Assembly (NCBI GenBank): GCA_963770045.1
Contig: CAVYOD010000022.1
Location: 41,173-105,172 of the forward strand
Direction of reading: 5' to 3'
Source: Candidatus Aminicenantes bacterium
GTDB lineage: Bacteria; Acidobacteriota; Aminicenantia; Aminicenantales; CAVYOD01
Length of the DNA stretch: 64,000 nucleotides
Position numbers and translations under genes: made by a program. Shown in pieces: positions 20,280 through 50,217 of this stretch (its first letter is position 1; the number at the start of each line of letters is the position of its first letter). The notes under the pieces were generated by a model. The model saw nothing but the letters and a program-made list of their open reading frames with translations. It made no database searches and was not told the DNA's origin.

Positions 20280-20308
20280 TTGACAAACCGGGACTTTCTC
20301 ACTAAAAT
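20280..20308 (+). promoter_or_regulatory. near-consensus sigma-70 promoter upstream of hdrC (locus 1)
   Basis: TTGACA-17 nt-TAAAAT. Implies a ~250-nt leader before the hdrC ATG at 20567. Confidence 0.5.
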
Positions 20309-20566: not shown

Positions 20567-21184
20567 ATGGATATCCAGAAAAAAGTTAAGTATGAAGAAG
20601 AATTGGACAGACATTTCCTGGAAGAGATCAAGGATATGTCCGGCTGCGAAGAGATCGACCGCTGCATTCAGTGCGGCACCTGCAGCAGTTCCTGCCCCAT
20701 GTCGATCTATATGGATTATCCCCCGCGCAAGATTATCGCCATGGTCAAGAACGGCTTTAGGGAAGAGGCCCTCAAGAGTTTCACGATCTGGCTCTGCCCC
20801 TCCTGCTACACTTGCCAGGTCCGCTGTCCCGCGAAAATCAAGATCACCGACGTCATGTACGCACTCAAGCGGAAGGCCATCGAGGAAAAAGTCTACCCGT
20901 CCCGCTTCGCCATTCCTGTGCTTGATAAGGAGATGTCAAAGCTGATCGCGGCCAACGGCCGGAGTTCCGATTTGTGGCTTATCCTGAACCTTTATCTCAA
21001 ATCCTGGAACCCCATGGGCCTTCTGAAAATGGCTCCTCTCGGACTGAAGCTCATCAAGACGGGCCGGATGAGCCTGAAAAAGGATGCCATCAAAAACAAG
21101 AAACAACTGCGTACGCTCTTAAAAGCGGTTGTAAGGAGGGAGCTCGATGAACGGCTATGTTTATTTCCCAGGCTGTTCCCTTAA
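20567..21184 (+). CDS. hdrC: heterodisulfide reductase subunit C-like (2x[4Fe-4S])
   Basis: 205-aa ORF with RBS AGGAGG. Motifs CIQCGTCSSSCP and CPSCYTCQVRCP. The 3' end overlaps hdrB by 38 nt. Confidence 0.85.
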   Translation: MDIQKKVKYEEELDRHFLEEIKDMSGCEEIDRCIQCGTCSSSCPMSIYMDYPPRKIIAMVKNGFREEALKSFTIWLCPSCYTCQVRCPAKIKITDVMYALKRKAIEEKVYPSRFAIPVLDKEMSKLIAANGRSSDLWLILNLYLKSWNPMGLLKMAPLGLKLIKTGRMSLKKDAIKNKKQLRTLLKAVVRRELDERLCLFPRLFP

Positions 21185-22031
21185 GGTGAGCGCCAAGCAT
21201 TATGAGGAATCCATCCTTCCTGTTTTCAGGGAAGTCGGACTGCCTCTCGCCGAGCTCGAAGACTGGAACTGCTGCGGCGCCACGGCCTACTCATCGGTGG
21301 ACGATACGATGGCCTCGGCCATCTGTGGCCGCAACCTTTCTCTGGCCGAGAAAACAGGAAAAGACATCATTGCCCCCTGTGCGGGTTGTTATTTGACACT
21401 CAAGAAGTCAAACAAGTTTCTGACCGGAGGTCTTCCCAAAGCCGAAAAAATCCTCAATGATCTGAGAACGGTCGGCTGTGAGTATCAGGGAAATGTCAAG
21501 GTCAAACACCCACTGGAAGTCCTGACCAAGGAGATCGGCCTGGAAAAAATCCGTGAGAGGGTCACCCGGAAGCTCAGCGGGATCAAAGTCGCCTGTTATT
21601 ATGGGTGCCAGCTCGTTCGGCCCTATACCGAGTTCGATGACCCGGATTATCCCATGTCGCTCGATCATCTCATGGAGACGATCGGCGCTCAGCCGGTCGA
21701 TTTTTCGGCCAAGACGCGCTGTTGCGGAGGATCCCTCACCGGCACAATCGAAAACGTCGGCCTCCGGCTGAACTACATCCTTCTCCGGGAAGCCAAAAAA
21801 AAGGGGGCTGATCTCGTCGTCACCATCTGCCCCCTCTGCCAGTTCAATCTCGAAGTCCTCCAAGACAAAATCGTGCGCACCTATAAACAGGACGTGAAGA
21901 TGCCTATTCTCTATTTCAGTCAGCTCATGGGACTGGCTTTTGGCCTGGCCAAGGAGGACCTGGGTTTTTCTCGTTCGATCATACCTCTCAAGGCCCTCTG
22001 GACCAAGCTCGAGAATGGAGGGAAAAGATGA
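21147..22031 (+). CDS. hdrB: heterodisulfide reductase subunit B-like (two CCG domains)
   Basis: 294-aa ORF. YFPGCSL, WNCCGA, APCAGCY, YYGCQ, RCCGG, CPLCQ motifs match the duplicated CCG-domain pattern. Confidence 0.88.
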   Translation: MNGYVYFPGCSLKVSAKHYEESILPVFREVGLPLAELEDWNCCGATAYSSVDDTMASAICGRNLSLAEKTGKDIIAPCAGCYLTLKKSNKFLTGGLPKAEKILNDLRTVGCEYQGNVKVKHPLEVLTKEIGLEKIRERVTRKLSGIKVACYYGCQLVRPYTEFDDPDYPMSLDHLMETIGAQPVDFSAKTRCCGGSLTGTIENVGLRLNYILLREAKKKGADLVVTICPLCQFNLEVLQDKIVRTYKQDVKMPILYFSQLMGLAFGLAKEDLGFSRSIIPLKALWTKLENGGKR

Positions 22032-22882
22032 GCAACCAAAACGGTCAGCCGAGAATCGGAGTCTTTGTCTGCGATTGCGGCACCAATATCGCCGGAAAAG
22101 TCAATGTGCCAGAAGTGGTCGAGTTCGCTTCCCATTTGGACGACGTCATTGTGGCCAGGGAATATAAATTCATGTGCTCGGACCCAGGCCAGGAACTGAT
22201 CAAGCAGAACATCAAGGACCATAACCTGAACCGAGTGGTCGTCGCCTCGTGCTCCCCCCTGATGCACGAACAGACGTTCCGCGAGGTCACGTTTGAGGGC
22301 GGCTTGAATCCTTTTTATTTCCAGATGTCCAATGTTCGCGAGCAGGTCTCCTGGGTGACCAAAGATCCCCAGCAGGCAACCAAAAAGGCCAAGGCGCTGG
22401 TCTCAGCGGCCGTCCGGAGAGTCGCCCTTCATGATCCCCTGACGAAAAAAGAAGTTCCCGTCCGTCCGGAAGTCTTGATCGTCGGCGGCGGGATCGCCGG
22501 AATCCAAGCCGCCTTGACCTACGCCAAGTCCGGGAAAAAAGTCTATCTTGTCGAGAAACAGCCATCCATCGGCGGGCACATGTCCCTGCTCGATAAGACC
22601 TTCCCTACCCTTGATTGTTCCGCCTGCATCCTGACGCCCAAGATGAGCGAAGTCGGAAAACATCCCAACATTGAGCTCCTGACCTGGAGCGAGGTGCAGG
22701 AGATCTCCGGCTACGTCGGGAATTTCAAGGCCAGGATCAAAAAGAAGGCCCGCTTTGTGGATATCGACAAGTGCAACGGCTGCGGCGCCTGCTGGGAAAA
22801 CTGCCCCACCACGATTACCCCGTCGGAACGGATCATCAAAAAAGGCCAGATTGTCATCAAGAAGGTGGACAAAGAAAACTAG
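22028..22882 (+). CDS. hdrA: HdrA N-terminal part (Cys-cluster, FAD-binding fold, first ferredoxin motif) encoded as a separate 284-aa protein
   Basis: GVFVCDCGTNIAGKV, VASCSPLMHE, LIVGGGIAGIQAAL, FPTLDCSACILTPK. Ends with CNGCGACWENCP. ATGA overlap with hdrB. Confidence 0.8.
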   Translation: MSNQNGQPRIGVFVCDCGTNIAGKVNVPEVVEFASHLDDVIVAREYKFMCSDPGQELIKQNIKDHNLNRVVVASCSPLMHEQTFREVTFEGGLNPFYFQMSNVREQVSWVTKDPQQATKKAKALVSAAVRRVALHDPLTKKEVPVRPEVLIVGGGIAGIQAALTYAKSGKKVYLVEKQPSIGGHMSLLDKTFPTLDCSACILTPKMSEVGKHPNIELLTWSEVQEISGYVGNFKARIKKKARFVDIDKCNGCGACWENCPTTITPSERIIKKGQIVIKKVDKEN

Positions 22883-22883: not shown

Positions 22884-23252
22884 ATGAAACTCAAGGAAGT
22901 TCAGAGCATCCTCGACGCCGAGATCATCTGGGGAAACGAAGCCCAGTTGGAGATCGACATCGACTATGCCGGGGCTTCGGACTTGATGAGCGATGTCTTG
23001 GCCTTCAGCGAGCCTGGGCTTCTCTTCCTCACCGGACTGGCCCACGCTCAGTCCGTCCGGACCGCAAATATCATCGAGGCCAAAGCCATCATTTATGTCC
23101 GCGGCAAGAAGCCGGACATGGAAGGCCTGGAACTGGCCATGGAAAAGGGGATCCCCATCCTCTCTACGAGATGCATGATGTACGAGGCTTGCGGTCTCCT
23201 CCGCAAGCACGGACTCCCTGGAATCACCGAATTCCAAGAAAAAAAGGGATGA
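22884..23252 (+). CDS. DRTGG-domain protein (copy 1)
   Basis: Start set at ATG 22884, 2 nt after the hdrA-N stop. About 122 aa, MKLKEVQSILDAEIIWG...ASDLMSDVLAF...FLTGL...IIYVRGKKP. Resembles the small DRTGG proteins that accompany HydABC-type hydrogenase operons. Confidence 0.7.
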   Translation: MKLKEVQSILDAEIIWGNEAQLEIDIDYAGASDLMSDVLAFSEPGLLFLTGLAHAQSVRTANIIEAKAIIYVRGKKPDMEGLELAMEKGIPILSTRCMMYEACGLLRKHGLPGITEFQEKKG

Positions 23253-23698
23253 TGAACGGCCGAAATGTCTTCACTCGAACTTTCGATATTACCGGCGGCG
23301 ACTTTAGCAAAGCCGGGAATGTCTCGACCCGGATCAAGGACATTCTCAAAGAAATCGGGATCGACTCCTCGATCATCCGCCGCACCGCCATCGCTTCCTA
23401 CGAGGCCGAGATGAATGCGGTCATGTACGCTCATAAGGCTGCGATCACACTGATCTTGAACCCGAAACTCATCGAGCTCAGAATCGATGACCAGGGGCCG
23501 GGGATCCCGGACATCGGATTGGCCATGAAGGAGGGCTATTCTACGGCCACTCAGGAGATGCGCGAGATGGGGTTTGGCGCCGGGATGGGTCTCCCCAATA
23601 TCAAGAAGAATGCCGATAAATTCGAGATCTCATCGACCTTGGGCAAGGGCACCCACCTCGATATCTTTTTTTATCTGGACCAGAAGGGAAAAGCATGA
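23249..23698 (+). CDS. anti-sigma-factor-type Ser/Thr kinase-like ATPase (HATPase_c)
   Basis: Start at ATG 23249 (ATGA overlap). G-box region RIDDQGPGIPD...GFGAGMGLPNIKK...GKGTHL. Confidence 0.7.
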   Translation: MMNGRNVFTRTFDITGGDFSKAGNVSTRIKDILKEIGIDSSIIRRTAIASYEAEMNAVMYAHKAAITLILNPKLIELRIDDQGPGIPDIGLAMKEGYSTATQEMREMGFGAGMGLPNIKKNADKFEISSTLGKGTHLDIFFYLDQKGKA

Positions 23699-25015
23699 TC
23701 CCGTATTTCCACTCGATCCGGGTTGATCGCGAAAAATGCGACGGGCGGATGAAGTGCATGCGGATCTGTCCGACCGAGGCCATCAGAGTCAGAAAAGGGA
23801 AGGCGACGATCATCCCAGAAAAATGCATCGACTGCGGAGAATGCATCACGGCCTGCCCGAACTCGGCTATTATCCCACTGACCAACCCCTTCGGAGAGCT
23901 GACCAAGTTCAGGCACACGATCGCCATCCCGTCTCCAGCGCTTTATGCCCAATTCGGCCGAGAAATTCTGCCCGGGAGAATCCTGGCCGGGTTGAAAAAA
24001 ATAGGCTTCGATGACGCCCACGACCTTGCTTTCACAGCGGGAGAGGTCAGTTTCGCGATCCAGGAATACGTCCGAGAATACAAAGGCCCCAAGCCCCTGA
24101 TATCGAGCACCTGCCCGGTTGTCGTCCGGCTCATCCAAGTCAAGTATCCTGACTTCATAGACCTTATCCTCCCGATTGATAATCCCAGGGAGATCGCCGC
24201 CCGGGAGATCAAAAAAAAGAAATCCAAGCAGTTCGATCTCGAGGAGAAAGAAATCGGCACGTTCTACCTGACTCCCTGTCCGAGCAAGATGATCTCCATC
24301 CGCCAGCCGGCCGAGAAAGGGTCAGTCTCACCTCGACGGGGCCATTGCTATCCAGGATATTTACGGGCCTCTCCTTGCCGCCATGGAAACTATCGAATCG
24401 GAGAGCTACAGGAAAGCGCTGGAGAGCGTTTGCATCCTCGGCATCGGCTGGGCCATGGTGGGAGGGATCTGCCGCACCCTCCGCATGAAGAATTCACTGG
24501 TCGTGTCCGGTTTGCCGGAAATCATCAGAGTTTTCGACGACATCGAGCGCGGAAAGCTGCGCAACATTGATTTTATCGAGGCCTACTCCTGCCCTCAGGG
24601 ATGCGTCGGGGGTTCGCTCACCGTCGAAAACGTCTATATCTCCTATAACAAAATCCTCAAGTTGATTGAGACTCTCGAATTCGAGAAAATCAAGGCGTGT
24701 CCAGACATCCGGGAAGTCAGGAACCTCTACCGGCAGCGGTATTTTCATCTCGAGGGCAAAATAGAACCCCGGCCTCTTAAACCCCTGGATGAGAATCTGG
24801 CCAGGGCCATTTCGAAAAGGAAAGAAAAAGAAAAGATCTATGAATCTTTGCCGCAAACAGACTGCGGAGCCTGCGGCTCCCCGAGCTGCCAGGCCTTCGC
24901 CGAGGATCTCGTCCAGGGAGAGGTCAAGCTCACCGACTGCATCTATAAACTTGCGGGCCTGGAGCGGGCCCGCCCAGAGAGCCTCCCCGGGCAAATAAAA
25001 AAGGATAAACCATGA
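23695..25015 (+). pseudogene. sensory-type [FeFe]-hydrogenase-like protein (2x[4Fe-4S] N-domain, H-domain with variant motifs, C-terminal Cys4 domain); one frameshift as sequenced
   Basis: ORFs 23695-24570 and 24383-25015 join at a GGG run (24319-24321). Motifs: CPTEAI/CIDCGECITACP, L1-like SSTCPVV, L2-like TPCPSK, L3-like EAYSCPQGCVGG, C-terminal CGACGSPSC-x16-C. Confidence 0.75.
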
Positions 25016-25354
25016 AACTCAAAGATGTCGCCGAGAAACTGGGCCTCGAAGTTTTGACCTGCAGAGACAAGACTCGATGGGGAAGTCAGCAACGGTTACG
25101 CCAGCGACCTGCTTTCGGATGTCATCGCTAATTCCCGGGAAAAGAATCTCTGGATCACGCTCCAGACCCATCAAAACATCGTCGCCGTCGCCAAACTCAG
25201 GGACCTGGCCGGGATCATCCTGGTCAATAATCGCCAGCCGGAGGAGCTGACCCTGAAAAAGGCCGAGGAAGAGAAGGTCGTCTTGTTGGCCACTCCCCGC
25301 GCGGCCTTCGAGATTTCGGCCCAACTTTACAGTCTGATGAAAGCCAGGGATTGA
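25012..25354 (+). pseudogene. DRTGG-domain protein (copy 2), frameshifted as sequenced; absent from the supplied ORF track
   Basis: ATG 25012 (ATGA overlap) gives MKLKDVAEKLGLEVLTCRDK. Skipping one base near 25069-25072 continues LDGEVSNGYASDLLSDVIANSREKNLWITLQTHQNIVAVAKLRDLAGIILVNN...LYSLMKARD, with stop at 25352-25354. Confidence 0.7.
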
Positions 25355-25357
25355 TAG

Positions 25358-26089
25358 ATGCTCAAGATTTTTAAAGCGGACCTGCACATTCATACGTGCC
25401 TTTCGCCCTGTTGCGATCTGGAGATGTCCCCGCGAAGCATCGCCGAGCAGGCCAAAAAAAAGGAGCTTCAGATTCTGGGAATTTGCGACCACAACTCGGC
25501 CGAGAATGTCCCGGCGGTTATGAAAGCGGCCAGTCGATTCCAGATCCAAGTCATCCCTGGGATTGAGGTGACATCCCAGGAAGAAGTCCATATCCTGGCC
25601 CTTTTTGCCGACCTCGATTCAGCCTTCGCCCTGCAGGACATCATCTACGGTCACCTCCCCGGAGAAAATGATGAGGCGGCCTTTGGCATGCAGGTTGTGG
25701 TTGACGAGAACGGGGATGTCCTCGGATTTAACAAAAGGCTCCTCATCGGGGCCTCGACGATTGACCTGGAAGGGGTGGTCGTGCGAATCCACACCCTGGG
25801 AGGAATCGCGATCGCATCTCATATCGACCGGGAGGGATTCAGCCTGATCGGTCAGCTCGGTTTTGTCCCCGATAATCTCGGTCTCGACGCCCTGGAAATA
25901 TCTCCGCGGGTTTCATTTCAGACGGCCCGGGAGAGATTCCGTCCCCGCGAGCCTCTGACCACGTCATCGGACGCCCACTTCCTCAGAGATATCGGCCAGA
26001 GCTACACGTCGTTTTCACTTGAGGAGGCGACCCTGGGAGAAATCAAGAAGGCTCTCCTCAACCAGGACGGAAGGAGAATCCTGAACTAG
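25358..26089 (+). CDS. PHP-domain (polymerase/histidinol phosphatase-like) metal-dependent phosphoesterase
   Basis: 243-aa ORF. ADLHIHTCLSPC...GICDHNSAEN...ASHIDR...SSDAH motifs. Confidence 0.8.
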   Translation: MLKIFKADLHIHTCLSPCCDLEMSPRSIAEQAKKKELQILGICDHNSAENVPAVMKAASRFQIQVIPGIEVTSQEEVHILALFADLDSAFALQDIIYGHLPGENDEAAFGMQVVVDENGDVLGFNKRLLIGASTIDLEGVVVRIHTLGGIAIASHIDREGFSLIGQLGFVPDNLGLDALEISPRVSFQTARERFRPREPLTTSSDAHFLRDIGQSYTSFSLEEATLGEIKKALLNQDGRRILN

Positions 26090-26096
26090 GAGAGTC

Positions 26097-26675
26097 ATGG
26101 AAGACCTTTCCCTGCACATCCTGGACATCGCCGAGAACTCCGTCGACGCCCAGGCCAAGACCGTCAGGATCCGGTTAGCGGAAGACCAGCCCAAGGACCT
26201 TCTGGTCCTGGAAATCGCGGATGATGGAAGAGGGATGGACCAAGAAATGATCGAGCGCTCCCTAGACCCCTTTGTGACGACCAAGACGACCCGTAGCGTG
26301 GGCCTGGGCCTTCCCCTTCTGGCCGAAGCCGCCAGAGCAGCTAACGGGAAGCTGCGGATTCAATCGAGGCCCGGTCAGGGAACCCGGGTCAAGGCGACCT
26401 TCCAGTTGAGCCACATCGATACCAAACCGCTGGGAGACATCGCCCAGACCCTGATCACTCTGATCGTCGGGCATCCTGAGGTGGATTTTCTTTACTCCCA
26501 CAAAATCAATAGATTCCGATTTACATTCGACACCCGAGAGCTCAAGGACAAGATCGACGGCCTTCCCCTGCAAGCGCCGCAGGTCGTGAGCTTTATCAAA
26601 AAAAACATCAACGACGGGCTAGACCGAATAAGGAGGAAAAATGAACGAAGTCAAGATCACGGGAATTCTCGGTAA
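26097..26675 (+). CDS. HATPase_c-like ATP-binding protein
   Basis: 192-aa ORF. LHILDIAENSVDA (N-box-like), LEIADDGRGMD, GLGLPLL, GQGTRV. Confidence 0.7.
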   Translation: MEDLSLHILDIAENSVDAQAKTVRIRLAEDQPKDLLVLEIADDGRGMDQEMIERSLDPFVTTKTTRSVGLGLPLLAEAARAANGKLRIQSRPGQGTRVKATFQLSHIDTKPLGDIAQTLITLIVGHPEVDFLYSHKINRFRFTFDTRELKDKIDGLPLQAPQVVSFIKKNINDGLDRIRRKNERSQDHGNSR

Positions 26676-27096
26676 GTACGAATCTGATCCGAGCGATATC
26701 ATCTCCATCCTGCAGGACATCCAGGAAGCCTACAGCTATCTTCCGAGAGAGGCCTTGAAAGAGGTCTCGAAAGAGCTCAACATCCCGCTCAGCCGGATCC
26801 TGAGTCTGGCGACGTTCTACAGGGCCTTCAGCCTGAGGCCTAAAGGCAAACACCCCGTTCACGTCTGCCTGGGAACAGCCTGCCACGTGCGTGGGGCCCA
26901 GCTCGTCTTAGAAAAATTTGAACGAGAACTAGATCTCAAGACGGGAGAAACGTCAACCGATGGCCTCTTCAGTCTAGACATGGTTCGCTGTGTCGGATGC
27001 TGCGGCCTCGCCCCTGTCGTCCAGGTTGGGGAAGAAATCCACGGCAAGATTACCCAGACCAAGGTTTCTGGGCTGGTCAAGAAATATAAAAAGTGA
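26641..27096 (+). CDS. NuoE/HydC-like [2Fe-2S] thioredoxin-fold subunit
   Basis: 151-aa ORF. ATFYRAFSLRPKGKHPVHVCLGTACHVRG...CVGCCGLAPV. Confidence 0.88.
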   Translation: MNEVKITGILGKYESDPSDIISILQDIQEAYSYLPREALKEVSKELNIPLSRILSLATFYRAFSLRPKGKHPVHVCLGTACHVRGAQLVLEKFERELDLKTGETSTDGLFSLDMVRCVGCCGLAPVVQVGEEIHGKITQTKVSGLVKKYKK

Positions 27097-27109: not shown

Positions 27110-27499
27110 ATGCCAAAACTCAACATTAACGATCTCGTAAAACTCAGAGAGCAGGCTAAGAAAACAACCCAGATCCGAGAGGGAGGAGAATACCGGGCCA
27201 AAATCAATGTCCACATGGGCACGTGCGGAATCGCGGCCGGGGCCCGAAACATCATGAGCGCCCTCCTCAAGGAGATCGAAGCGCGTGACGTCCGGGACGT
27301 CCTGCTCACCAATTCCGGCTGCGCCGGCCTCTGCAGCCACGAGCCGATGATCACCGTCGAGATGGCCGGCCGTCCTCCCGTCAAATACATCGACCTGACG
27401 GAAAAAAAGACCAAAGAGATTTTCGAAAAGCACATCCTGGGTGGGACGATCCTAAAAGATTACGCGTTGGGGATCGGCAGCGAAAAGACGGATTATTAA
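27110..27499 (+). CDS. thioredoxin-like [2Fe-2S] ferredoxin
   Basis: Start at ATG 27110 (GGGGGAG RBS). 129 aa. INVHMGTCGIAAGA...SGCAGLCSHEPM. Confidence 0.8.
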   Translation: MPKLNINDLVKLREQAKKTTQIREGGEYRAKINVHMGTCGIAAGARNIMSALLKEIEARDVRDVLLTNSGCAGLCSHEPMITVEMAGRPPVKYIDLTEKKTKEIFEKHILGGTILKDYALGIGSEKTDY

Positions 27500-27506
27500 G
27501 AGGTGT

Positions 27507-29345
27507 TTGAAAATGGCAGAGAAAACTAAAGAGAGAAGCTACAGGCTCCATCTGATGGTCTGCGCCGGGACTGGCTGCGTCTCCAACCACTCCTTTGAAG
27601 TCAAGGGGGCCCTGGAAAAAGAAATCAAGAAGCAGGGCCTGGAGAACGAAGTCCTCGTGGTCACCACCGGCTGCAACGGTTTTTGTGAGCGTGGACCTCT
27701 CCTCGTCGTCCAGCCGGGGAATATTTTTTATCAACAGCTGACGGTCAAAGATGTCCCCCATCTCGTCGAGGAACACTTTCTCAAGGGCCGGCCCGTCGCC
27801 AAATTGATGTACACTCCCCCCGAAGAAAAAAATCCTATCCCTGTTCTCAGCGATATCGATTTTTTCAAAAAACAAGTCTTGATCGCCCTCCGGAACCGCG
27901 GCTTGATAGATCCCGAGAAAATCGAGGATTACATCGCCCGCGATGGTTACAAGGCCATGGCCAAAGCCCTGACCGAGATGATCCCGGAGAAGATCATCAT
28001 GGAGATGACCTTCTCCGGCCTTCGCGGAAGAGGGGGAGCCGGATTCCCCACCGGATTGAAATGGCAGCTCGTCCGGAGCGCCGAGAGCGCCAACGGCGGA
28101 GGCAAATACATCATCTGTAACGGTGATGAAGGAGATCCGGGAGCCTTCATGGACAGAAGCATCCTTGAAGCCGATCCTCATTCGGTCTTGGAGGGGATGG
28201 TCATAGGAGCTAAGGCCATCGGCGCCTCCGAAGGGATCATCTATGTCCGGAATGAGTATCCACTGGCCGTGAAAAGAGTAAATCGGGCAATTGAACAGGC
28301 CAGGGAATATGGCCTCCTGGGAAAAGACATTTTGGGCACAGGCTTTGACTTTGATGTCAGAGTCCACAGGGGAGCCGGAGCTTTTGTCTGCGGAGAGGAA
28401 ACAGCCTTGATCTCGTCTATTGAAGGACGGCTGGGCGAACCCCGACCCCGGCCTCCCTATCCCGCCCAGAGCGGGCTCTTTGGAAAGCCCACCTGTATCA
28501 ACAATGTGGAGACTTGGGCCAATGTCCCGGTGATCATTGACCGCGGCGCCAAATGGTATTCGCGAATTGGAACCGAAACCAGCAAAGGGACAAAAGTCTT
28601 CTCCCTGGTCGGGAAGATCAATAACACCGGTCTGGTCGAGGTTCCCATGGGAATATCCCTGAGGGAAATCATCTATGACATCGGGGGGGGAATTCCGGGA
28701 GGCAAAAAGTTCAAGGCGGTTCAAACCGGCGGGCCATCGGGGGGGTGCATTCCCAAAGAAAAAATCGATTTGCCCATCGACTACGAAAGCTTGAGCCAGG
28801 CGGGTTCGATGATGGGCTCGGGCGGCATGGTCGTCATGGACGAAGACACCTGTATGGTTGATGTGGCGAGATACTTTCTCTCCTTTACCCAGGATGAGTC
28901 TTGCGGGAAATGCACACCCTGCCGTGAAGGGACAAAGGCTATGCTGAGCATTTTGACCCGGATCACCGAGGGGAAGGGCACCGGAGACGACATCGCTCTG
29001 CTGGAAGACCTGGCCCACTCCGTGAAGGACACCGCTCTCTGCGGCTTGGGGAAGACCGCGCCTAACCCGGTCCTGACCACTCTCCAGTATTTCCGGGACG
29101 AATATGAAGCCCATATCAAGGAGAAAAGATGTCCCGCCCATGTCTGCCGTCAGCTCAACGTGTACACGATCAACGCGCAAACCTGCGTCAAGGCGGGCCA
29201 CGGCTGTGATGTCTGCCGCCGCAACTGCGCCTCGGATGCGATCGCGGGCGAAAAAGGCGCTGCCCACAAAATTGACCAGCGTAAGTGCATCAAATGCGGC
29301 GTCTGCTATGATGTCTGCAATTTCGGCGCCGTGAAGGTTGAATAG
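27507..29345 (+). CDS. NuoF/HydB-like NAD(H)-binding flavoprotein with N-terminal [2Fe-2S] and C-terminal 2x[4Fe-4S] domains
   Basis: 612-aa ORF. MVCAGTGCVS..TGCNGFC, GRGGAGFPTGLKW, NGDEGDPGAF, ESCGKCTPCREG, CIKCGVCYDVC. Confidence 0.9.
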   Translation: MKMAEKTKERSYRLHLMVCAGTGCVSNHSFEVKGALEKEIKKQGLENEVLVVTTGCNGFCERGPLLVVQPGNIFYQQLTVKDVPHLVEEHFLKGRPVAKLMYTPPEEKNPIPVLSDIDFFKKQVLIALRNRGLIDPEKIEDYIARDGYKAMAKALTEMIPEKIIMEMTFSGLRGRGGAGFPTGLKWQLVRSAESANGGGKYIICNGDEGDPGAFMDRSILEADPHSVLEGMVIGAKAIGASEGIIYVRNEYPLAVKRVNRAIEQAREYGLLGKDILGTGFDFDVRVHRGAGAFVCGEETALISSIEGRLGEPRPRPPYPAQSGLFGKPTCINNVETWANVPVIIDRGAKWYSRIGTETSKGTKVFSLVGKINNTGLVEVPMGISLREIIYDIGGGIPGGKKFKAVQTGGPSGGCIPKEKIDLPIDYESLSQAGSMMGSGGMVVMDEDTCMVDVARYFLSFTQDESCGKCTPCREGTKAMLSILTRITEGKGTGDDIALLEDLAHSVKDTALCGLGKTAPNPVLTTLQYFRDEYEAHIKEKRCPAHVCRQLNVYTINAQTCVKAGHGCDVCRRNCASDAIAGEKGAAHKIDQRKCIKCGVCYDVCNFGAVKVE

Positions 29346-29356
29346 GAGGGCCAAAA

Positions 29357-31114
29357 ATGATTAACCTGACAGTCGACGGAAAGAAGGTTCAAGTTGAAGA
29401 AGGAGCGACAATCCTCCAAGCGGCCAAGAAGGCCGAGATCCAGATTCCGACACTGTGCTACCATCCTGTCGTCGAAGCCTACGCGGCCTGCCGGGTCTGC
29501 ATGGTGGAGTCTATGGTCAAGGGGAAATCCGAGTTGGTAACAGCCTGCAACACGAAAGTCCAGGAAGGGATGGAAGTCCAGACAAGATCAGAGCGCGCCC
29601 TGCGGGCCCGCCGGCTCAACGTGGAGATGCTCATGGCCCGGGCGCCCGCGGCGGAGCCTGTCCAGAAAATCGCCAGGGAGCTAGGAATCGAAAAGACCAG
29701 GTTTGAAATCAAAGATCCGGAAGAAAAATGCATCCTCTGCGGACTGTGCGTCCGGGCCTGCGAGCAAATCGTCGGAGCCAACGCCATCAGTTTTGTCGAT
29801 CGGGGGACCGACCGGAAGGTCATGCCTCCCTTCGGGGAACAATCCGAAGCCTGCATCGGCTGCACCGCCTGCGCCTATTTCTGTCCGACCGGGGCGATCT
29901 CGGTGGAAGATAAATACGGCCGGAAGGTCATCCACGACGAGCTTCATCTCGGCCCTTCGACAGCCATCCGCGTTCCCATCCGCCAGGCTGTTCCGATGGT
30001 CCCGTTTATTGACAAGGATGCCTGTATCCACTTCAAAACCGGGGAATGCAAAGTCTGCGAGAAGGTCTGCGACCGGCTGGCCATTGACCACAAGATGGAG
30101 GACAAGGAGATCGAGATCGAGGTCGGCACCATCATCCTGGCCTCGGGTTTCAAACCTTTTGATGCCAAGAGGATTCCCGCGTACGGCTACGGGAGGTACG
30201 ATAATATCCTCACAGCGATGGACTTTGAAAGGCTGGTCAATGCCTCGAGCCCGACCGGCGGAAAAATTCTCATGACCAACGGGGAAGAACCAAAATCGGT
30301 CGGCATCATCCACTGTGTCGGCTCCCGTGACGAAAATTACAACGAATATTGTTCCCGGGTCTGCTGCATGTATTCTCTCAAGTTCGCCCATCTGCTGCGA
30401 GAAAAAACCAAGGCCGATATCTATGATTTCTATATTGATATGCGCTGTTTCGGCAAGGGCTACGAAGAGTTCTACCACCGCCTTCTCGAGGAAGGAACAA
30501 AGTTCATCAGGGGGAGGGTCTCGGAGATCTCAAGTATCGCCCTGACGGCTCGGGAGGAAGGGAAACTCATCATCCGGGTAGAGGACACTCTCCTGGGAGC
30601 AGTCAGGAGAATCCCGGTGGACATGGCCATCCTGAGTGTGGGGCTGGAGCCCGGACTGGATCACAATCAACTGGCTAGGACTTTCAACATTTCCTGCAGC
30701 CAGGACACCTTCTTCCTGGAACGGCACCCCAAGCTCGCTCCGGTCTCGACATTTTCAGACGGCATTTTCCTTGCGGGGACCTGTCAGGGACCGAAAGATA
30801 TTCCGGATAGCGTCGCTCAAGCCGGGGCAGCGGCTTCGGAGGCCATGGCCCTGGCCGATAAAGGCACGGTCGAGCTAGAACCGGTGACGGCCTCGATCGA
30901 TGAGGAGCTCTGTTCGGGCTGCCAGCTCTGCGTCGGCCTCTGCCCCTTCACGGCCATCACGTTCGACAAGGAAAAAGAGATCTCGGCTATCAACGACGTT
31001 CTCTGCAAGGGCTGTGGAACCTGTGTCGCCGCCTGCCCGAGCGGGGCTTCCGCCCAGAAGCACTTCAGAGATGAGCAAATCTTCGCCGAAATCGAGGGGA
31101 TCCTTGTCGTTTAG
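29357..31114 (+). CDS. fusion protein: NuoG/HydA-N-terminal-like [2Fe-2S] + 2x[4Fe-4S] module joined to the C-terminal two-thirds of HdrA
   Basis: 585-aa ORF. N-part LTVDGKKVQV..IPTLCYHP..CRVCMVE, CILCGLCVRAC, CIGCTACAYFCP. HdrA part AIRVPIRQAVPMVPFIDKDACIHFKTGECKVCEKVC, HCVGSRD..YCSRVCCMYSLK, LAGTCQGPKDIPDS, C-terminal CSGCQLCVGLCP/CKGCGTCVAACP. Confidence 0.8.
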   Translation: MINLTVDGKKVQVEEGATILQAAKKAEIQIPTLCYHPVVEAYAACRVCMVESMVKGKSELVTACNTKVQEGMEVQTRSERALRARRLNVEMLMARAPAAEPVQKIARELGIEKTRFEIKDPEEKCILCGLCVRACEQIVGANAISFVDRGTDRKVMPPFGEQSEACIGCTACAYFCPTGAISVEDKYGRKVIHDELHLGPSTAIRVPIRQAVPMVPFIDKDACIHFKTGECKVCEKVCDRLAIDHKMEDKEIEIEVGTIILASGFKPFDAKRIPAYGYGRYDNILTAMDFERLVNASSPTGGKILMTNGEEPKSVGIIHCVGSRDENYNEYCSRVCCMYSLKFAHLLREKTKADIYDFYIDMRCFGKGYEEFYHRLLEEGTKFIRGRVSEISSIALTAREEGKLIIRVEDTLLGAVRRIPVDMAILSVGLEPGLDHNQLARTFNISCSQDTFFLERHPKLAPVSTFSDGIFLAGTCQGPKDIPDSVAQAGAAASEAMALADKGTVELEPVTASIDEELCSGCQLCVGLCPFTAITFDKEKEISAINDVLCKGCGTCVAACPSGASAQKHFRDEQIFAEIEGILVV

Positions 31115-31259: not shown

Positions 31260-31706
31260 ATGAGCAATGGACCGTTTGAACCCAAGCTTGTTGGGTTCTT
31301 ATGCAACTGGTGCTCTTATACCGGCGCCGACCTTGCCGGAACAGCGAGAATGACCTATGCCCCCAACCTCCGCATCATCCGGGTCATGTGCAGCGGGCGC
31401 GTCGATCCTCAATTCGTCTTAAAAGCGTTCGCTGAGGGTGCTGACGGGGTGCTCATCTCCGGCTGCCATCCCGGAGACTGCCACTACCAAGAAGGGAATT
31501 ATAAAGCCTTGCGAAGAGCGAAACTCCTTTCCCGGGTGCTGCAGGAATTCGGCATCGAAAAGGAAAGATTTAGGCTGGAATGGGTTTCCGCTTCGGAGGG
31601 AGTCAAGTTCCAGCATGTCGTCAACGAGTTCACTGCGCAGGTCAAGAAACTGGGGCCGTTGGGTTTCAAAGCGAACGGAGGCAAGCATGAGTCAAGCCAA
31701 GCCTAA
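31260..31706 (+). CDS. mvhD: MvhD-type hydrogenase iron-sulfur subunit
   Basis: 148-aa [18 protein letters not shown]...[10 protein letters not shown]...GCHPGDCHY. Confidence 0.88.
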
Positions 31707-32667
31707 GGTGGCCTTTTACTGGTGTTCATCCTGCGGAGGATGCGAAGAATCCATCGTCGACCTAGCCGCGGACATTTTGAAAGTCGTCGCCGCGGTCGAC
31801 ATCGTCTTCTGGCCGGTCGCGTTGGATTTCAAGAAAAAGGATGTGGAGGCCATGCCCGACGGCTCGATCGCCGTGAGCTTCATCAACGGCGCTGTCCGGA
31901 CCTCAGAGCAGGAAGAGATGGCCCATCTGATGAGGAAAAAATCGCAGCTCGTCGTCGCGCACGGCGCTTGCGCTCATCTGGGCGGAATCCCCGGACTGGC
32001 CAACTTCTGGAACAAAGAGACGATCTTCCGAAAAGTCTATCACACAACCGTCTCCACGGACAACCCCAACAAGACCGTCCCTCAAGAGAAGAGCATGGTT
32101 GACAATTACGAATTAACTCTGCCCCGATTCTGGGACACGGTTTATCCCCTGGACAAGATCATCGATGTGGATTACTACCTGCCCGGGTGCGCGCCTCACC
32201 GTGATCTCATCATCAACGCCGTCAATGCCATTCTCGAAGGAAAGCTTCCGCCCAAGGGTGCCGTTCTCGCTCCGAATAAATCCTGCTGTGATGATTGCGA
32301 GAGGAACAAAACTAAGCCGGAAAAGCTCTCGATCAAGGAAGTCAAACGCCCCTACGAAATCCAGCTCGACCCGGAAAAGTGCTTCCTGGCCCAGGGGGTC
32401 ATCTGCATGGGCCCGGCCACCCGCGGCGGATGCGGCGAACGCTGCATCGAGGGCAACATGCCGTGCCGCGGCTGCATGGGGCCGACCGACCAGGTCTATG
32501 ACCAAGGGGCGAAATTCCTCTCCGCCTTTGCTTCCATCCTGGATACCAACGATGAGAAGGAAATCGAAAAAATCGTCTCGACGATCGTCGACCCTGCCGG
32601 GACCTTTTATCGTTTCAGCCTGCCCTCATCGATTCTCAGACGCAAAAGACTGGAGGCCGTAAGATGA
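31687..32667 (+). CDS. mvhG: Mvh-type (F420-non-reducing) [NiFe]-hydrogenase small subunit
   Basis: Start at ATG 31687 (GGAGG RBS; overlaps the mvhD end). [34 protein letters not shown], medial/distal cluster Cys motifs. Confidence 0.85.
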
Positions 32668-34124
32668 CCCAAAGAATAACCATCGATCCAATCACCAGGC
32701 TTGAAGGCCATGGAAAAATCGAGATCTTCTTAAACGACAAGGGCGACGTGGACCGGGCTATTCTCCAGGTCCCCGAGCTGAGGGGCTTTGAGCAGTTCGC
32801 CGTGGGACGGCCGGTGGAAGAAATGCCCCGGATCACTCCCCGCATCTGCGGAGTTTGTCCCATGGCCCACCACATGGCCGGAACCAAGGCCGTGGACGCC
32901 GTCTTTCACGTCGAACCGACACCCACCGCCCGGAAAATCCGGGAGCTGGTCTACAATGCCTTCACCATGGAGGACCACACCCTCCACTTTTTCTTCCTCG
33001 GCGGCCCGGATTTTGTCGTCGGGCCGCAGGCTCCGGCTGCTGATCGGAATATCCTGGGCGTTATCGGCAAGGTCGGGCTTGAGATCGGAGGCCGGGTCAT
33101 CCACATCCGCGAAGCGGTCCGGGAGATCATGGTCCACCTTGGCGGCAAGGCCATCCATCCGGTCCTGGGGCTGCCGGGCGGCGTCTCCAAGGCTTTGGAC
33201 GAAGAGCACAGGGTCAAGTTCCTGGAGACGGCCAAGGATGCCGTGGAGTTCGCTGAATTCGCCCTCCAGATCTTTGACGACGTCGTCCTCAAAAACAAAA
33301 CCTACGTCGATATCGTTGTCGGCGACGCTTATAAGATCAAGACCTACTACATGGGGATGGTCACGGACAAAAACCAGGTCGAATTCTATGACGGGGACAT
33401 CAAGGTTGTCGACCCAGAGGGAAAGGACTTCGCCCGTTTCAAGGCAAGCCAGTATCTCGAGCATATCGCCGAGCACGTCGAGCCCTGGACCTATGTCAAA
33501 TTCCCCTTCCTGAAGAAAGTCGGCTGGAAGGGCTTTGTCGAGGGGAAGGACAGCGGAGTTTACCGGGTAGCTCCGCTCGCCCGTCTCAATGTCGCCGACG
33601 GAATGCAGACCCCCCGGGCGCAAAAGCACTACGAGCGGATGTACGCTACCCTGGGCGGAAAGCCCGTCCACAACACCCTGGCCTTCCACTGGGCTCGCTT
33701 GATCGAGGCCCTCCAGGCCGCTGAGAAGATGGTCCAGCTTCTGGAAGACAAGTCCATTACCGGCAAAGATATCCGCACGATCCCGACCCAGACCCCGACC
33801 GAAGGGGTGGGTATCGTCGAAGCTCCCCGCGGCCTGCTGATTCACCACTACAAGACCGATGAGAAGGGGATCGTCACCGACGCCAACTTGATCGTGGCCA
33901 CGATCGGAAACGCAGCGGCCATCAACATGTCGATCGAGAAGGCGGCCAAGACGTTCATCAAGGGCGGGATCGTGTCCGAGGGACTCCTGAACATGGCCGA
34001 AATGGCCTTCCGTCCCTATGATCCCTGCCACGGCTGCGGGACTCATTCACTGCCCGGGGAAATGCCGCTGATCATCAATATCTACGACAAAGACAGAGAG
34101 CTGGTGAAGCAGCTCAAGCGATAA
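32664..34124 (+). CDS. mvhA: Mvh-type [NiFe]-hydrogenase large subunit
   Basis: 486-aa ORF. RLEGHG, N-terminal Ni-ligand motif PRICGVCPMAHH and C-terminal DPCHGCGTH followed by a 25-aa tail. Confidence 0.9.
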   Translation: MTQRITIDPITRLEGHGKIEIFLNDKGDVDRAILQVPELRGFEQFAVGRPVEEMPRITPRICGVCPMAHHMAGTKAVDAVFHVEPTPTARKIRELVYNAFTMEDHTLHFFFLGGPDFVVGPQAPAADRNILGVIGKVGLEIGGRVIHIREAVREIMVHLGGKAIHPVLGLPGGVSKALDEEHRVKFLETAKDAVEFAEFALQIFDDVVLKNKTYVDIVVGDAYKIKTYYMGMVTDKNQVEFYDGDIKVVDPEGKDFARFKASQYLEHIAEHVEPWTYVKFPFLKKVGWKGFVEGKDSGVYRVAPLARLNVADGMQTPRAQKHYERMYATLGGKPVHNTLAFHWARLIEALQAAEKMVQLLEDKSITGKDIRTIPTQTPTEGVGIVEAPRGLLIHHYKTDEKGIVTDANLIVATIGNAAAINMSIEKAAKTFIKGGIVSEGLLNMAEMAFRPYDPCHGCGTHSLPGEMPLIINIYDKDRELVKQLKR

Positions 34125-34194: not shown

Positions 34195-36180
34195 ATGAAA
34201 TCTCCGAGTTTGTCTTTACGAACGAAGCTCATCCTCAGTTTTCTTGTGGTCATCACGATCGGCGGACTTATTTCTCTCTTTTTCGGTTCCCGCCTGACCA
34301 GAGAGACCTTGATTTCGCAGGCCCAGATCAAAGTCAAACACGATCTCTCCTCGGCCTGGCTGGTTTTTAACGAAAAACTCAGCAGCATCAGGCAGGTCGT
34401 CAGCCTGACCGCCGCCCGGGAAAGCCTGCGGGAGTTGCTCAAGAACGGGCAGACGGAAACTCTTTATCGCTACCTCAAACGGGTCCGAGAGGAATCCGGG
34501 CTGGACATCCTGACGGTTACGGATGCCTCGGGCCGGGTTATCATGAGGACCAGAAACCCACAATCGTCCGGCGACAGCGAAGCCCGGGACGAACTGGTTC
34601 AGAAGGCACTCGGCAAAGGCCTTTACGCCGGGCCGGAAATTGTCCCCCGGGACGAGCTCCTTAAAGAGGGAGAGGCTTTGGCGGATCAGGCCCTCATGAA
34701 CATCGTCCCGACGGCCAAGGCGGCTCCACGCGGCGAAAACAGAGAAACGAGTGGACTGATGCTCAAAGCCGCTGCTTCCGTGACCGACGATGAGAACAGG
34801 TTGCTCGGAGTGCTCTATGGCGGCATTCTGGTCAACAGAAACTACGAGATCGTGGACAGGATCAAAGAGCTCGTCTTTAAGGGAGAAAAGTACAAGGGGA
34901 GGGAGACCGGGACTGCCACCATTTTCCAGAATGACCTCCGCATCTCAACGAATGTCAAAAACGAAAGAGGTGAACGGGCCGTCGGGACACTCGTTTCCAA
35001 CCTGGTCAAAAAGGCCGTTCTGGACGAGGGAATTCCCTGGATCGACCGGGCCTTTGTCGTCAACGACTGGTATATCACCGCCTACGAACCGATCAAAAAC
35101 ATCTCCGGCAAGATCATCGGCATTCTCTACGTCGGAATGCTGGAAAAGCCCTACCTGGACGCGGCCAACCGGCTGATGCTGACTTTTACCGTCCTGGCCG
35201 TTTTATGTGTCCTTTTCCTCCTTGTGATATTGTACTTTTCCACGGCACGGATCATCAAACCGCTTGAAAAAATGGCTGTCGCCACTCAGGAGATCGCCAA
35301 AGGAGACCTTTCGCACAAAGTCGAGATCGATTCCAAGGATGAGATCGGGCGGCTGGCCGATTCTTTCAATCAAATGACCGAGCATCTTCGGGAAGCAAAC
35401 AAAGAACTTATCGAATGGGGCACCACGCTGGAAAAAAAGGTCGACGAACGGACCAAAGAACTCGTGGAAATACAGGGACACTTGATCCAATCGGAAAAAC
35501 TCGCCTCTCTTGGCAAACTGGCCGCCGGCATCGCCCACGAAATCAACAATCCGCTGGGAGGCATCCTGATTTACAGCTACCTTATTCTGGAGGAGACTCC
35601 CAAAGACAACCCGCACTATGACAATCTTAAGAAGATCGTCAAAGAAACGACCCGTTGCAAAGACATCGTCAAGGGCCTGCTCGAATTCGCCCGCCCCAAG
35701 GAGCCGGAGATGTCCCTGACGGATATCAATGACGTCATCGAACGATCTCTTTCCATCGTCGAGCGCCAGGTGCTCTTCCAGAACATCACCATCAAAAAGG
35801 AATACTCCCGCGGCCTGCCCAGGACGATCGCCGATGGCGCTCAGCTCCAGCAGGTTTTTATCAACATGATCATCAACGCCGCTGAGGCCATGAAGGGAAA
35901 CGGAGCCCTCACGATCAAGTCTTCTCTCGAGCAGGACAAGCAATATTTGGCCATCGAATTCACTGACACGGGACACGGGATCAGAGAAGAAGACAAGAAG
36001 CGGCTCTTTGAGCCTTTTTTTACCACGAAGGAGGTGGGCAAAGGCACCGGTTTGGGCCTGGCGATCAGCTATGGCATCATCCAGAAACATAATGGCGCCA
36101 TCATTGTTTCCAGTCAGGTGGGAAAGGGCACGACCTTTAAGGTCAGATTGCCTGTGCGGAAAGAAGTCCAGCATGGTTGA
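34195..36180 (+). CDS. sensor histidine kinase (two TM segments, extracytoplasmic Cache-like domain, HAMP, HisKA, HATPase)
   Basis: 661-aa ORF. TM segments LILSFLVVITIGGLISLFF and LTFTVLAVLCVLFLLVILYF. H-box AAGIAHEINNPLGG. ATPase boxes INMIINAAEAM, DTGHGI, GTGLGLAIS. Confidence 0.88.
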   Translation: MKSPSLSLRTKLILSFLVVITIGGLISLFFGSRLTRETLISQAQIKVKHDLSSAWLVFNEKLSSIRQVVSLTAARESLRELLKNGQTETLYRYLKRVREESGLDILTVTDASGRVIMRTRNPQSSGDSEARDELVQKALGKGLYAGPEIVPRDELLKEGEALADQALMNIVPTAKAAPRGENRETSGLMLKAAASVTDDENRLLGVLYGGILVNRNYEIVDRIKELVFKGEKYKGRETGTATIFQNDLRISTNVKNERGERAVGTLVSNLVKKAVLDEGIPWIDRAFVVNDWYITAYEPIKNISGKIIGILYVGMLEKPYLDAANRLMLTFTVLAVLCVLFLLVILYFSTARIIKPLEKMAVATQEIAKGDLSHKVEIDSKDEIGRLADSFNQMTEHLREANKELIEWGTTLEKKVDERTKELVEIQGHLIQSEKLASLGKLAAGIAHEINNPLGGILIYSYLILEETPKDNPHYDNLKKIVKETTRCKDIVKGLLEFARPKEPEMSLTDINDVIERSLSIVERQVLFQNITIKKEYSRGLPRTIADGAQLQQVFINMIINAAEAMKGNGALTIKSSLEQDKQYLAIEFTDTGHGIREEDKKRLFEPFFTTKEVGKGTGLGLAISYGIIQKHNGAIIVSSQVGKGTTFKVRLPVRKEVQHG

Positions 36181-39759: not shown

Positions 39760-39769
39760 GGAGGAGACG

Positions 39770-48349: not shown

Positions 48350-48358
48350 GGTCTCCTC

Positions 48359-50203: not shown

Positions 50204-50217
50204 TGTATGGCTCCTCC

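Follow-up and report, generated by a model that had tools for sequence, protein, structure and literature searches.

Gene content and operon structure of the locus

The stretch of DNA analyzed here (hereafter, the window) comprises 64,000 nucleotides (nt) of contig CAVYOD010000022.1 of Candidatus Aminicenantes bacterium, positions 41,173 to 105,172 of the forward strand; all coordinates below are window positions. Its plus strand carries, at 22884-26675, a cassette of six small genes that, judging from Pfam searches, encode a DRTGG domain protein (DRTGG1), a small ATPase (ATPase1), an [FeFe]-hydrogenase homolog similar to HydS, a second DRTGG protein (DRTGG2), a PHP-family phosphoesterase, and a second ATPase (ATPase2). 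The cassette is located between the gene for the N-terminal part of HdrA and nuoE, within an operon that probably encodes an Hdr-Bfu-[NiFe]Mvh complex without a catalytic [FeFe] hydrogenase, and approximately 40 species of uncultured bacteria share this layout. It represents a variant of the known HydS-type cassette, which until now was known beside [FeFe]-hydrogenase genes and is found here inside a split Hdr/[NiFe] operon. The six genes, their order, and their position had been listed in a first-pass annotation of the window, and Pfam, PDB alignments, and the PF01257 match of the NuoE-like protein all agree with that listing.

DRTGG1 (22884-23252, 122 amino acids) and DRTGG2 (25012-25354, 113 amino acids when repaired) match PF07085 with 20.9 and 22.4 bits, respectively, under the gathering score of 25.2, and these calls are backed by homologs and by fusion proteins that score above the threshold (P0202, 36.1 bits; P0125, 28.8 bits). 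ATPase1 (23249-23698, 149 amino acids) is a small GHKL ATPase of the anti-sigma (SpoIIAB/RsbW) type (HATPase_c, 32.7 bits; HATPase_c_2, 29.1 bits). The HydS-like gene (23695-25015) codes for a group D (M2e)-type [FeFe]-hydrogenase homolog (439 amino acids when repaired) with matches to Fe_hyd_lg_C (101 bits), the FeS domain PF04060 (55.7 bits), and two Fer4 domains. It is followed, after DRTGG2, by the gene for the metal-dependent phosphoesterase of the PHP family (25358-26089, 243 amino acids; PHP, 41.6 bits; PHP_C, 28.1 bits), for which an exact-protein look-up returned no record, and by that for ATPase2 (26097-26675, 192 amino acids), which contains a kinase-type catalytic ATP-binding domain (HATPase_c, 66.4 bits). 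The HydS-like gene is interrupted at 24316 and the DRTGG2 gene at 25072, and their Pfam matches were obtained on frames repaired by deleting one base (see below). With that repair, all six domain families assigned by the first-pass annotation hold in the hidden Markov model searches.

Upstream of the cassette, on the same strand, are hdrC (20567-21184, 205 amino acids), which encodes a 4Fe-4S dicluster protein (Pfam Fer4_8/Fer4_17) and is syntenic in related loci; hdrB (21147-22031, 294 amino acids), with two CCG domains (97 bits in two stretches); and the N-terminal part of hdrA (22028-22882, 284 amino acids). The latter protein aligns with residues 3-261 of HdrA (PDB 5ODC_A, E = 8e-99) and ends just past the first Cys motif, which aligns with HdrA residues ∼245-261. 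Residues 165-582 of a 585-amino-acid protein encoded downstream (29357-31114) align with HdrA residues 245-649, so that hdrA is split into two genes. This second protein is a fusion of a BfuA-like domain with 2Fe-2S and 4Fe-4S clusters (residues ∼1-196) and the C-terminal part of HdrA (∼165-583), as seen from Pfam and PDB alignments: its residues 2-196 align with the NuoG-like chain 9MQX_A and residues 1-187 with HydA1 (8A6T_A), and this N-terminal stretch also aligns with 7T2R_A. The gap between the two hdrA parts holds nine genes, DRTGG1 through nuoF, and the downstream half carries the BfuA-like domain as a fusion. We take the break to fall within the inserted ferredoxin domain of HdrA seen in 5ODC.

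The cassette is followed by genes for a NuoE/HydC/BfuC-like [2Fe-2S] subunit (26641-27096, 151 amino acids; PF01257, 163 bits), a HydD-like small thioredoxin-like [2Fe-2S] protein (27110-27499, 129 amino acids; partial PF01257 match, 23 bits), which is syntenic in all related loci, and a NuoF/HydB/BfuB-like flavoprotein (27507-29345, 612 amino acids). In Pfam searches, this last protein shows the HydB/BfuB architecture, i.e., an FMN/NADH-binding domain flanked by a Trx-like [2Fe-2S] domain at the N terminus and a 2x[4Fe-4S] domain at the C terminus, and its best PDB matches are NiFe-HydB (7T2R_B, 870 bits) and Acetobacterium woodii HydB (7Q4V_B, 827 bits), versus ∼395 bits for the Nqo1/NuoF subunit of complex I. 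Past the fusion gene, the plus strand encodes MvhD (31260-31706, 148 amino acids; PF02662 FlpD, 191 bits), an MvhG-like [NiFe] small subunit (31687-32667; PF01058, 78 bits; start set at MSQAKPKV), and an MvhA-like [NiFe] large subunit (32664-34124, 486 amino acids; PF00374, 116 bits). HdrA (as two polypeptides), HdrB with its two CCG domains, HdrC, MvhD, MvhG, and MvhA are thus encoded together. A catalytic HydA is absent from the window, as the first-pass annotation had stated for this locus: a bona fide HydA query matched only the HydS-like gene (30% identity) and FeS domains.

All components of the group 3c MvhADG-HdrABC complex (PDB 5ODC) are therefore present here, but HdrA is split near residues 261-275, with nine genes between the halves and the BfuA-like domain fused at the break. 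Members of the Bfu family, such as NiFe-HydABCSL of Acetomicrobium mobile and Bam-Bfu, share with this locus the BfuB architecture, the BfuC-like NuoE, and the BfuA-like N-terminal FeS domain, and a [NiFe] hydrogenase and an HdrA-type module stand in one gene cluster here. In contrast to the described Bfu types, this locus encodes BfuA as a fusion with the C-terminal half of a split HdrA and has all of the HdrBC and MvhDGA genes. In the searched passages of Schut et al. (2022; PMC9304861), Bam-Bfu is a Bfu enzyme that includes an HdrA module, NiFe-Bfu is a type of its own, and no Hdr-Mvh-Bfu type is named; flanking regulatory genes appear in that paper only as unlabelled figure text. Literature searches for DRTGG with hydrogenase, HydS/HydABC/PHP, HdrA/NuoF/Mvh, and Aminicenantes hydrogenases returned no description of this arrangement.

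The hdrC-to-mvhA layout looks like a single operon. The start codon of ATPase1 overlaps the stop codon of DRTGG1 (ATGA, 23249), and further genes overlap at 23695-23698, 25012-25015, and 26641-26675. In a consensus scan, the best sigma-70-like promoter of the region (TTGACA-17-TAAAAT, 20280-20308, plus strand) was found upstream of hdrC, a match to the consensus alone, at 11 of 12 positions. Pfam searches of the cassette detected no DNA-binding, DHp (HisKA), receiver, STAS, or PP2C domain. Given the tight packing, the one sigma-70-like promoter upstream of hdrC, and the lack of a DNA-binding domain, the cassette proteins should be made together with the enzyme subunits. The window also contains very long antisense open reading frames (ORFs) without Pfam matches (906, 306, 267, 212, and 657 amino acids) at 27381-29354 on the minus strand and at 47384-52749 on the plus strand; they oppose real nuoF, fusion, and hdr genes and could mislead ORF-based gene calling.

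The HydS-like protein

The HydS-like protein was compared with the features that Land et al. (PMC8163306) gave for the M2e/group D enzyme TamHydS. In the numbering of the repaired protein, the predicted Cys ligands of the H-cluster are C140 (SSTC140P), C195 (TPC195), and C299 and C303 (C299PQGC303). All four are invariant in the 31 HydS-like sequences from Aminicenantes. When 1.84 billion representative proteins were searched without a profile, 338 clusters were retrieved at E ≤ 1e-30; in the 104 full-length representatives of this family, three of the H-cluster Cys residues are invariant and C195 is found in 103. The position of the proton-relay Cys residue, C299 of CpI, is occupied by Thr (SSTCP), M353 is replaced by Thr (TPC), and M497 by Tyr (YSC). 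Throughout the family, these positions hold A/S/F/T, T/S, and R/L/Y, respectively, and Cys is never listed at the C299 position. The C terminus has a Cx2Cx4Cx16C motif (CGACGSPSC-x16-C), the second ferredoxin motif is complete, and no PAS domain was matched in Pfam. By its sequence, the protein thus appears to carry every tested-for feature of the putatively sensory group D (M2e) [FeFe] hydrogenases except for a complete first ferredoxin motif. Group D enzymes have been referred to as "functionally undefined" or "putatively sensory" (PMC11216029).

TamHydS of Thermoanaerobacter mathranii (WP_013150113; PMC8163306, PMC13104023), compared here through its published features, has an N-terminal 2x[4Fe-4S] domain; like the HydS-like protein, it contains a four-Cys H-domain, has the proton-relay Cys, M353, and M497 replaced, carries the Cx2Cx4Cx16C motif, and lacks PAS. 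Its gene also has an adjacent histidine kinase-like ATPase gene and is located just upstream of NuoE/NuoF-type genes, in that case those of a trimeric bifurcating HydABC. Unlike at the TamHydS locus, the downstream partner here is the C-terminal half of HdrA together with the MvhDGA [NiFe] hydrogenase, the block interrupts hdrA, and there is no adjacent AraC-type regulator; the HydS-like protein differs by a first ferredoxin motif that is one Cys short and by the frameshift of its gene in the window. The group C HydS proteins of Thermotoga maritima and Ruminococcus albus resemble the HydS-like protein in being H-cluster proteins without the proton pathway and with a C-terminal extra cluster. 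In R. albus, kinase-like and phosphatase-like genes reportedly accompany the HydS gene, beside a bifurcating hydrogenase. Unlike that R. albus system, with its PAS and PP2C domains and anti-sigma-type kinase, the cassette has no PAS or PP2C and contains the DRTGG proteins and the PHP hydrolase instead.

Conservation of all H-cluster ligands and of three accessory cluster sites would also be expected if the HydS-like protein were a low-activity hydrogenase or an electron-transfer subunit feeding Bfu, with the ATPases, DRTGG proteins, and PHP hydrolase serving as assembly or maturation factors. TamHydS does turn over H2 (PMC8163306), the cassette genes are embedded among those of the enzyme subunits, and in Bacillota the ATPase2 gene even stands between nuoE and hydD. 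Still, this alternative is improbable, as the proton-transfer residues are missing in the same way as in the sensory groups, the paralogous Hdr-Bfu locus of the same genome and the Chloroflexota loci lack the cassette, and the cassette also occurs alone, without a nearby NuoF (see below). Published HydABC and HydABCD enzymes are said to have been purified as complexes of those subunits only.

Partner proteins of the cassette

Residues D33, S36, D37, V38, and T50 of DRTGG1 are conserved across 148 homologs, with the Ser (S36) and Thr (T50) residues of the DRTGG proteins retained in at least 90% of sequences. In both ATPases, the N, G1, and G2 boxes reach the same level of conservation (at least 90%), and ATPase2 has a conserved F box as well. 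Compared with solved structures, ATPase1 has a weak match to SpoIIAB (E = 3e-3), whereas ATPase2 matches catalytic domains of histidine kinases, among them that of KinB (E = 1e-9). ATPase2 is a stand-alone protein without a DHp/His domain and has a C-terminal domain of ∼85 amino acids. The PHP protein retains its metal-binding residues (HxH, DH, E, H, and DxH) in at least 90% of sequences, and its nearest solved relatives are the TrpH-like phosphoesterases 3E0F and 2YB1 and EndoQ.

The cassette resembles the partner-switching modules of the SpoIIAB/RsbW type in that a small GHKL ATPase of the anti-sigma type is encoded along with a hydrolase and other small proteins as partners; it differs from them by the lack of STAS, PP2C, and a sigma factor and by the weakness of the SpoIIAB match. 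Since STAS, PP2C, and HisKA features were looked for and not found, it is neither a canonical partner-switching system nor a canonical two-component system.

Several of the cassette proteins are also found as fusions. The family representatives include DRTGG-HydS (P0125 and P0202) and HATPase-HydS (P0150) fusions, as well as HydS-DRTGG proteins with the DRTGG domain at the C terminus of HydS (P0142, P0171, P0174, P0192, and P0262). A single ORF encodes DRTGG1 together with ATPase1 in 13 of the genome loci; HydS is joined to DRTGG2 in this way in 2 loci, and so is PHP to ATPase2 in 2 (L091 and L094). The DRTGG-ATPase fusions suggest direct contact between these proteins.

Phyletic distribution and gene neighborhoods

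Relatives of the BfuA-HdrA fusion protein were found in 73 loci from one-genome-per-species collections. The complete collinear run, which extends from the N-terminal part of hdrA through the six cassette genes and nuoE, hydD, and nuoF to the fusion gene, was recovered in 41 loci by searches from the fusion and the HydS sides. As L003 and L081 are on the same contig, these represent 40 distinct contigs, and a chance adjacency of the cassette and the Hdr-Bfu genes was rejected on that count. The complete runs come from Aminicenantes, Terriglobia/Bryobacterales, Vicinamibacterales, and Ignavibacteria, and most of them continue with mvhDGA.

NuoF proteins of the complete loci fall into two size classes, ∼610 and ∼1020 amino acids. 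A long NuoF (∼1020 to 1055 amino acids) replaces the 612-amino-acid one in six Aminicenantes loci (L004, L010, L017, L022, L034, and L036), in L093 and L121, and in two loci from Chloroflexota (L037 and L038), where it ends in a GltD/NfnB-like C terminus. The two Chloroflexota loci have the split hdrA, nuoE, the long nuoF, and the fusion gene but not the cassette.

A search with an alignment of eight HydS family sequences recovered 80 loci. Among these, the gene order in Bacillota is DRTGG-ATPase-HydS-DRTGG-PHP-NuoE-ATPase2-HydD-NuoF-HydA; 16 HydS-like genes have this layout, and 6 more have HydA elsewhere on the locus. The first-pass annotation regarded the cassette as typical of the region upstream of the NuoE-NuoF-HydA genes, which holds for Bacillota, but the cassette is not specific to HydABC. 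A short form that consists of DRTGG, DRTGG, ATPase1, and HydS is present in Bacteroidota, Calditrichota, Zixibacteria, and some Ignavibacteria, where it precedes the genes for NuoE, NuoF, a NuoG/Fdh-like protein of 770 to 856 amino acids, and NfnAB-like proteins. A second cassette in Aminicenantes (L087 and L116) accompanies NuoE-HydD-NuoF, a small FeS protein, and a GltB-like protein. Approximately 33 cassettes have no NuoF in range, some of them on truncated contigs. Because the cassette also occurs with NuoG/Fdh-like plus NfnAB-like and with GltB-like partners, its common partner is the Bfu (HydBC-type) module and not HydA; in other words, it is Bfu-type NADH/ferredoxin modules that the cassette goes with, irrespective of which protein serves as the third catalytic partner.

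For one of the Bacillota examples, a score of 787 bits against A. woodii HydA1 verified that the protein is HydA. A search with the CCPxW pattern found none, and a relaxed pattern was used, since the Bacillota HydA proteins carry TSCSPGW. This motif, instead of the textbook TSCCPGW, is seen in HydA of all 22 HydA-bearing Bacillota-type loci (L092 to L153, e.g., L153:15776-17494), and A. woodii HydA1 (PDB 7Q4V_A) has it too.

A few loci contain unusual combinations. In a Firmicutes metagenome-assembled genome (MAG) (L093:9159-21302) and a Syntrophorhabdus MAG (L121:9157-21290), a cassette-HydABC operon is immediately followed by NuoE, the long NuoF, and a fusion-like gene whose product is 51 to 56% identical to the HdrA fusion protein; this arrangement may be an intermediate or a tandem. 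In L086 (6138-12961), a short HydS cassette in which DRTGG and ATPase are fused is followed by nuoE and then by the full six-gene form, and this tandem of two cassettes precedes the genes for HydD, NuoF, a 783-amino-acid NuoG/Fdh-like protein, and NfnAB-like proteins.

Phylogeny of the NuoF-like and HydS-like proteins

In a neighbor-joining tree of NuoF (100 bootstraps, effectively unrooted and oriented on Bacteroidota sequences), all 43 sequences from Hdr-linked, cassette-bearing loci fall within one group of 51 with 90% support. The eight other members are L005, L026, L031, and L045, which are truncated or incomplete loci from Aminicenantes, and L087, L116, L086, and L082. Two Chloroflexota sequences join the Hdr-linked group next (70%), and the Bacillota HydB proteins lie beyond them, at a join with ∼20% bootstrap. 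Nesting of the NuoE/NuoF-like proteins with HydBC had been put forward as a check in the first-pass annotation: the PDB ranking does point to a HydB-type protein and the tree places it beside Bacillota HydB, albeit with that ∼20% bootstrap. The tree and the PDB ranking together support the "HydB-type" assignment, while the order of events is not fixed by the tree.

The same applies to the suggestion that the regulatory module was retained while its catalytic partner was replaced. A protein that joins a HydA/NuoG-like N terminus to the C-terminal part of HdrA fits such a swap, but its direction is not resolved, because the neighbor-joining tree of HydS, with 100% support for the Aminicenantes clade, has less than 40% at its deeper nodes, and because Chloroflexota and the second Hdr locus of the window have the split-HdrA/Bfu genes without the cassette.

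Frameshifts in the cassette genes

The first-pass annotation overlooked the fact that, although the domains of all six cassette genes can be recognized, the HydS-like and DRTGG2 genes of the window are not intact ORFs. The reference for comparison is locus L001 of OY969586.1, a complete Aminicenantes MAG with 92.3% DNA identity over window positions 19365-41105. Three-frame translation and alignment place the frame change in the HydS-like gene at 24316 (GAG-AAG in L001, GAGAAAG in the window); that in DRTGG2 is at 25072 (CAAG-CTC in L001, CAAGACTC in the window). Each is a one-base insertion relative to L001. Removal of one base restores a full-length HydS-like protein (439 amino acids, 98% identical to L001) and a full-length DRTGG2 (113 amino acids, 96%), with no further lesions. 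The third frameshift, also a one-base insertion (CCC versus CC, at 52613), splits the minus-strand hdrB2 (51955-52825, two CCG domains), whose counterpart is intact in a relative (L154:14581-15546, a 321-amino-acid stop-to-stop ORF). Pfam searches of ten other suspicious ORF pairs in the window revealed no further split genes. Programmed frameshifting was rejected, as L001 and 120 listed homologs (420 to 469 amino acids, at least 95% coverage of the repaired query) appear uninterrupted.

If these frameshifts are real, the cassette could be a decaying relic in this genome, with the HydS-like and DRTGG2 genes being pseudogenes and the Hdr-Bfu-Mvh enzyme left unregulated, as at the second locus. 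The insertions at 24316 and 25072 are independent, affect neighboring genes of the cassette, and are separated by 756 bp, with only one other frameshift in the ∼43 kb of the window that can be compared with a relative, and the enzyme does exist cassette-free in the second locus and in Chloroflexota. Decay is nevertheless rather unlikely. The ratios of nonsynonymous to synonymous substitutions (dN/dS) versus L001 are 0.084 and 0.095 for the repaired HydS-like and DRTGG2 genes, within the range of the genes next to them, and 0.08 to 0.16 for all six cassette genes, which are thus under purifying selection, and the repaired genes are full-length, nearly identical to those of L001, and free of other lesions. 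All three frameshifts of the window are single-base insertions, one of them in the core gene hdrB2; similar sporadic frameshifts affect core genes in related MAGs (a one-base indel in the fusion gene of L001 and others in L006, L031, and L060); and in the 40 other complete loci, the cassette genes are all free of frameshifts. The frameshifts of the window are therefore quite probably assembly errors; otherwise, they would be very recent inactivations.

In L031 (7870-10001), an Aminicenantes MAG, most of the cassette is missing together with nuoE and hydD; what is left of the cassette, DRTGG1 and half of ATPase1, runs into nuoF. Three frameshifts also affect the hdrC, hdrB, and fusion genes of this locus, which represents either a deletion or a misassembly.

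A paralogous locus without the cassette

A second Hdr-Bfu locus is found on the minus strand of the window, from 53562 down to 46574. It consists of hdrC2 (52825-53562), the frameshifted hdrB2, the N-terminal part of hdrA2 (51113-51958), nuoE2 (50620-51081), hydD2 (50218-50607), nuoF2 (48359-50221), and a second BfuA/HdrA-C fusion gene, fusion2 (46574-48349), with proteins 42 to 75% identical to those of the first locus. Nothing lies between hdrA2-N and nuoE2, i.e., there is no cassette, and there are no adjacent mvh genes. In the NuoF tree, NuoF2 nests inside the cassette-bearing clade (88%), beside sequences from Vicinamibacterales (97%). Because this locus and those of Chloroflexota lack it, the cassette is dispensable for the split-HdrA/Bfu enzyme, so an accessory or regulatory role fits better than a structural one.

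According to the first-pass annotation, the second locus lacks the cassette and uses a sigma-54 promoter instead. The cassette is indeed lacking, and a sigma-54-like element (TGGTAC-N5-TTGC, 53680-53694, minus strand) is located 118 nt upstream of hdrC2; such matches are no more common in the window than expected by chance (3 found versus 2.7 expected). A further one (aGGCAt-N5-TTGCA, 37686-37700, plus strand) is seen ∼90 nt upstream of the gene at 37787, which belongs to a group 3b-like hydrogenase. These two elements, together with the genes for a 661-amino-acid sensor histidine kinase and an NtrC-like sigma-54-type regulator (34195-37528) that come after mvhA, would be expected if the cassette acted on transcription, signaling through this kinase and response regulator to control the other hydrogenase loci. 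Such a route is highly improbable: apart from the chance-level frequency of the sigma-54 matches, the kinase/regulator pair is outside the conserved block in other phyla (as searched with the window proteins only), and no DNA-binding, DHp, or receiver domain is encoded in the cassette itself.

Possible function of the cassette

The cassette can be interpreted as a dispensable H2- or redox-sensing accessory of the Bfu module that would tune the Hdr-Bfu-Mvh enzyme, a reading to which a probability of roughly 60% can be assigned and whose signaling chemistry is deduced from the domain content. The HydS-like protein would report H2 or the redox state via its H-cluster and FeS clusters, acting in a complex with DRTGG1, ATPase1, and DRTGG2, in line with the fusion proteins that support their contact. 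ATP binding or phosphorylation by the GHKL ATPases might then switch the output, with the PHP hydrolase reversing it, and the output would adjust the activity or coupling of the Bfu/Hdr/Mvh complex. Post-translational action is suggested by the placement of the cassette in the same operon and by the lack of DNA-binding, DHp, and receiver domains.

Several observations weigh against this interpretation. The first ferredoxin motif of the HydS-like protein is one Cys short (C-x5-C-x3-C-P) in all Aminicenantes copies and in some relatives. A sensory role is putative even for the characterized group D enzymes, whose partners and signaling route were described as unknown in a 2026 study (PMC13104023). 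In the absence of STAS, PP2C, DHp, and receiver domains, no canonical phosphorelay can be assigned to the cassette, and the nearest solved relatives of its PHP protein are nucleotide phosphoesterases and EndoQ rather than protein phosphatases. Some of the fusion proteins could be gene-calling artifacts of metagenome assemblies. Finally, two of the three frameshifts of the window are <760 bp apart in adjacent cassette genes, and such clustering would also fit a real, very recent inactivation.

A broader version of the sensory interpretation is conceivable, if doubtful. Here, the cassette would be a general ATP-dependent H2/redox governor that docks on Bfu modules and gates them post-translationally; in Acidobacteriota and Ignavibacteria, it would control an undescribed double-bifurcating Hdr-Bfu-[NiFe]Mvh supercomplex, and the fusions would identify the partners of group D hydrogenases.

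The cassette accompanies the Bfu module whichever of at least four catalytic partners is present, which suggests Bfu as its target. Synteny and the DRTGG-HydS, ATPase-HydS, and DRTGG-ATPase fusions name testable candidate partners of the group D hydrogenases. HdrABC, the Bfu core, and the Mvh-type [NiFe] hydrogenase, linked through the split and fused HdrA, would form a candidate complex that has two bifurcation sites and belongs to uncultured bacteria abundant in sediments and soils. The cassette-free paralogous locus in the same genome offers a built-in control for comparison.

Other hydrogenase genes in the window

The genes at 37787-42306 encode a group 3b-like (sulfhydrogenase-type) [NiFe] hydrogenase, with a Fer4_22 subunit, an FAD/NAD-binding subunit, a small subunit, and a large subunit of 585 amino acids that has a long C-terminal extension. 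This cluster was considered as the paralogous "locus 2" of the first-pass annotation and rejected, the true paralog being the minus-strand locus at 46574-53562. It is followed, at 44835-46075, by genes resembling those for a maturation protease and HypB.

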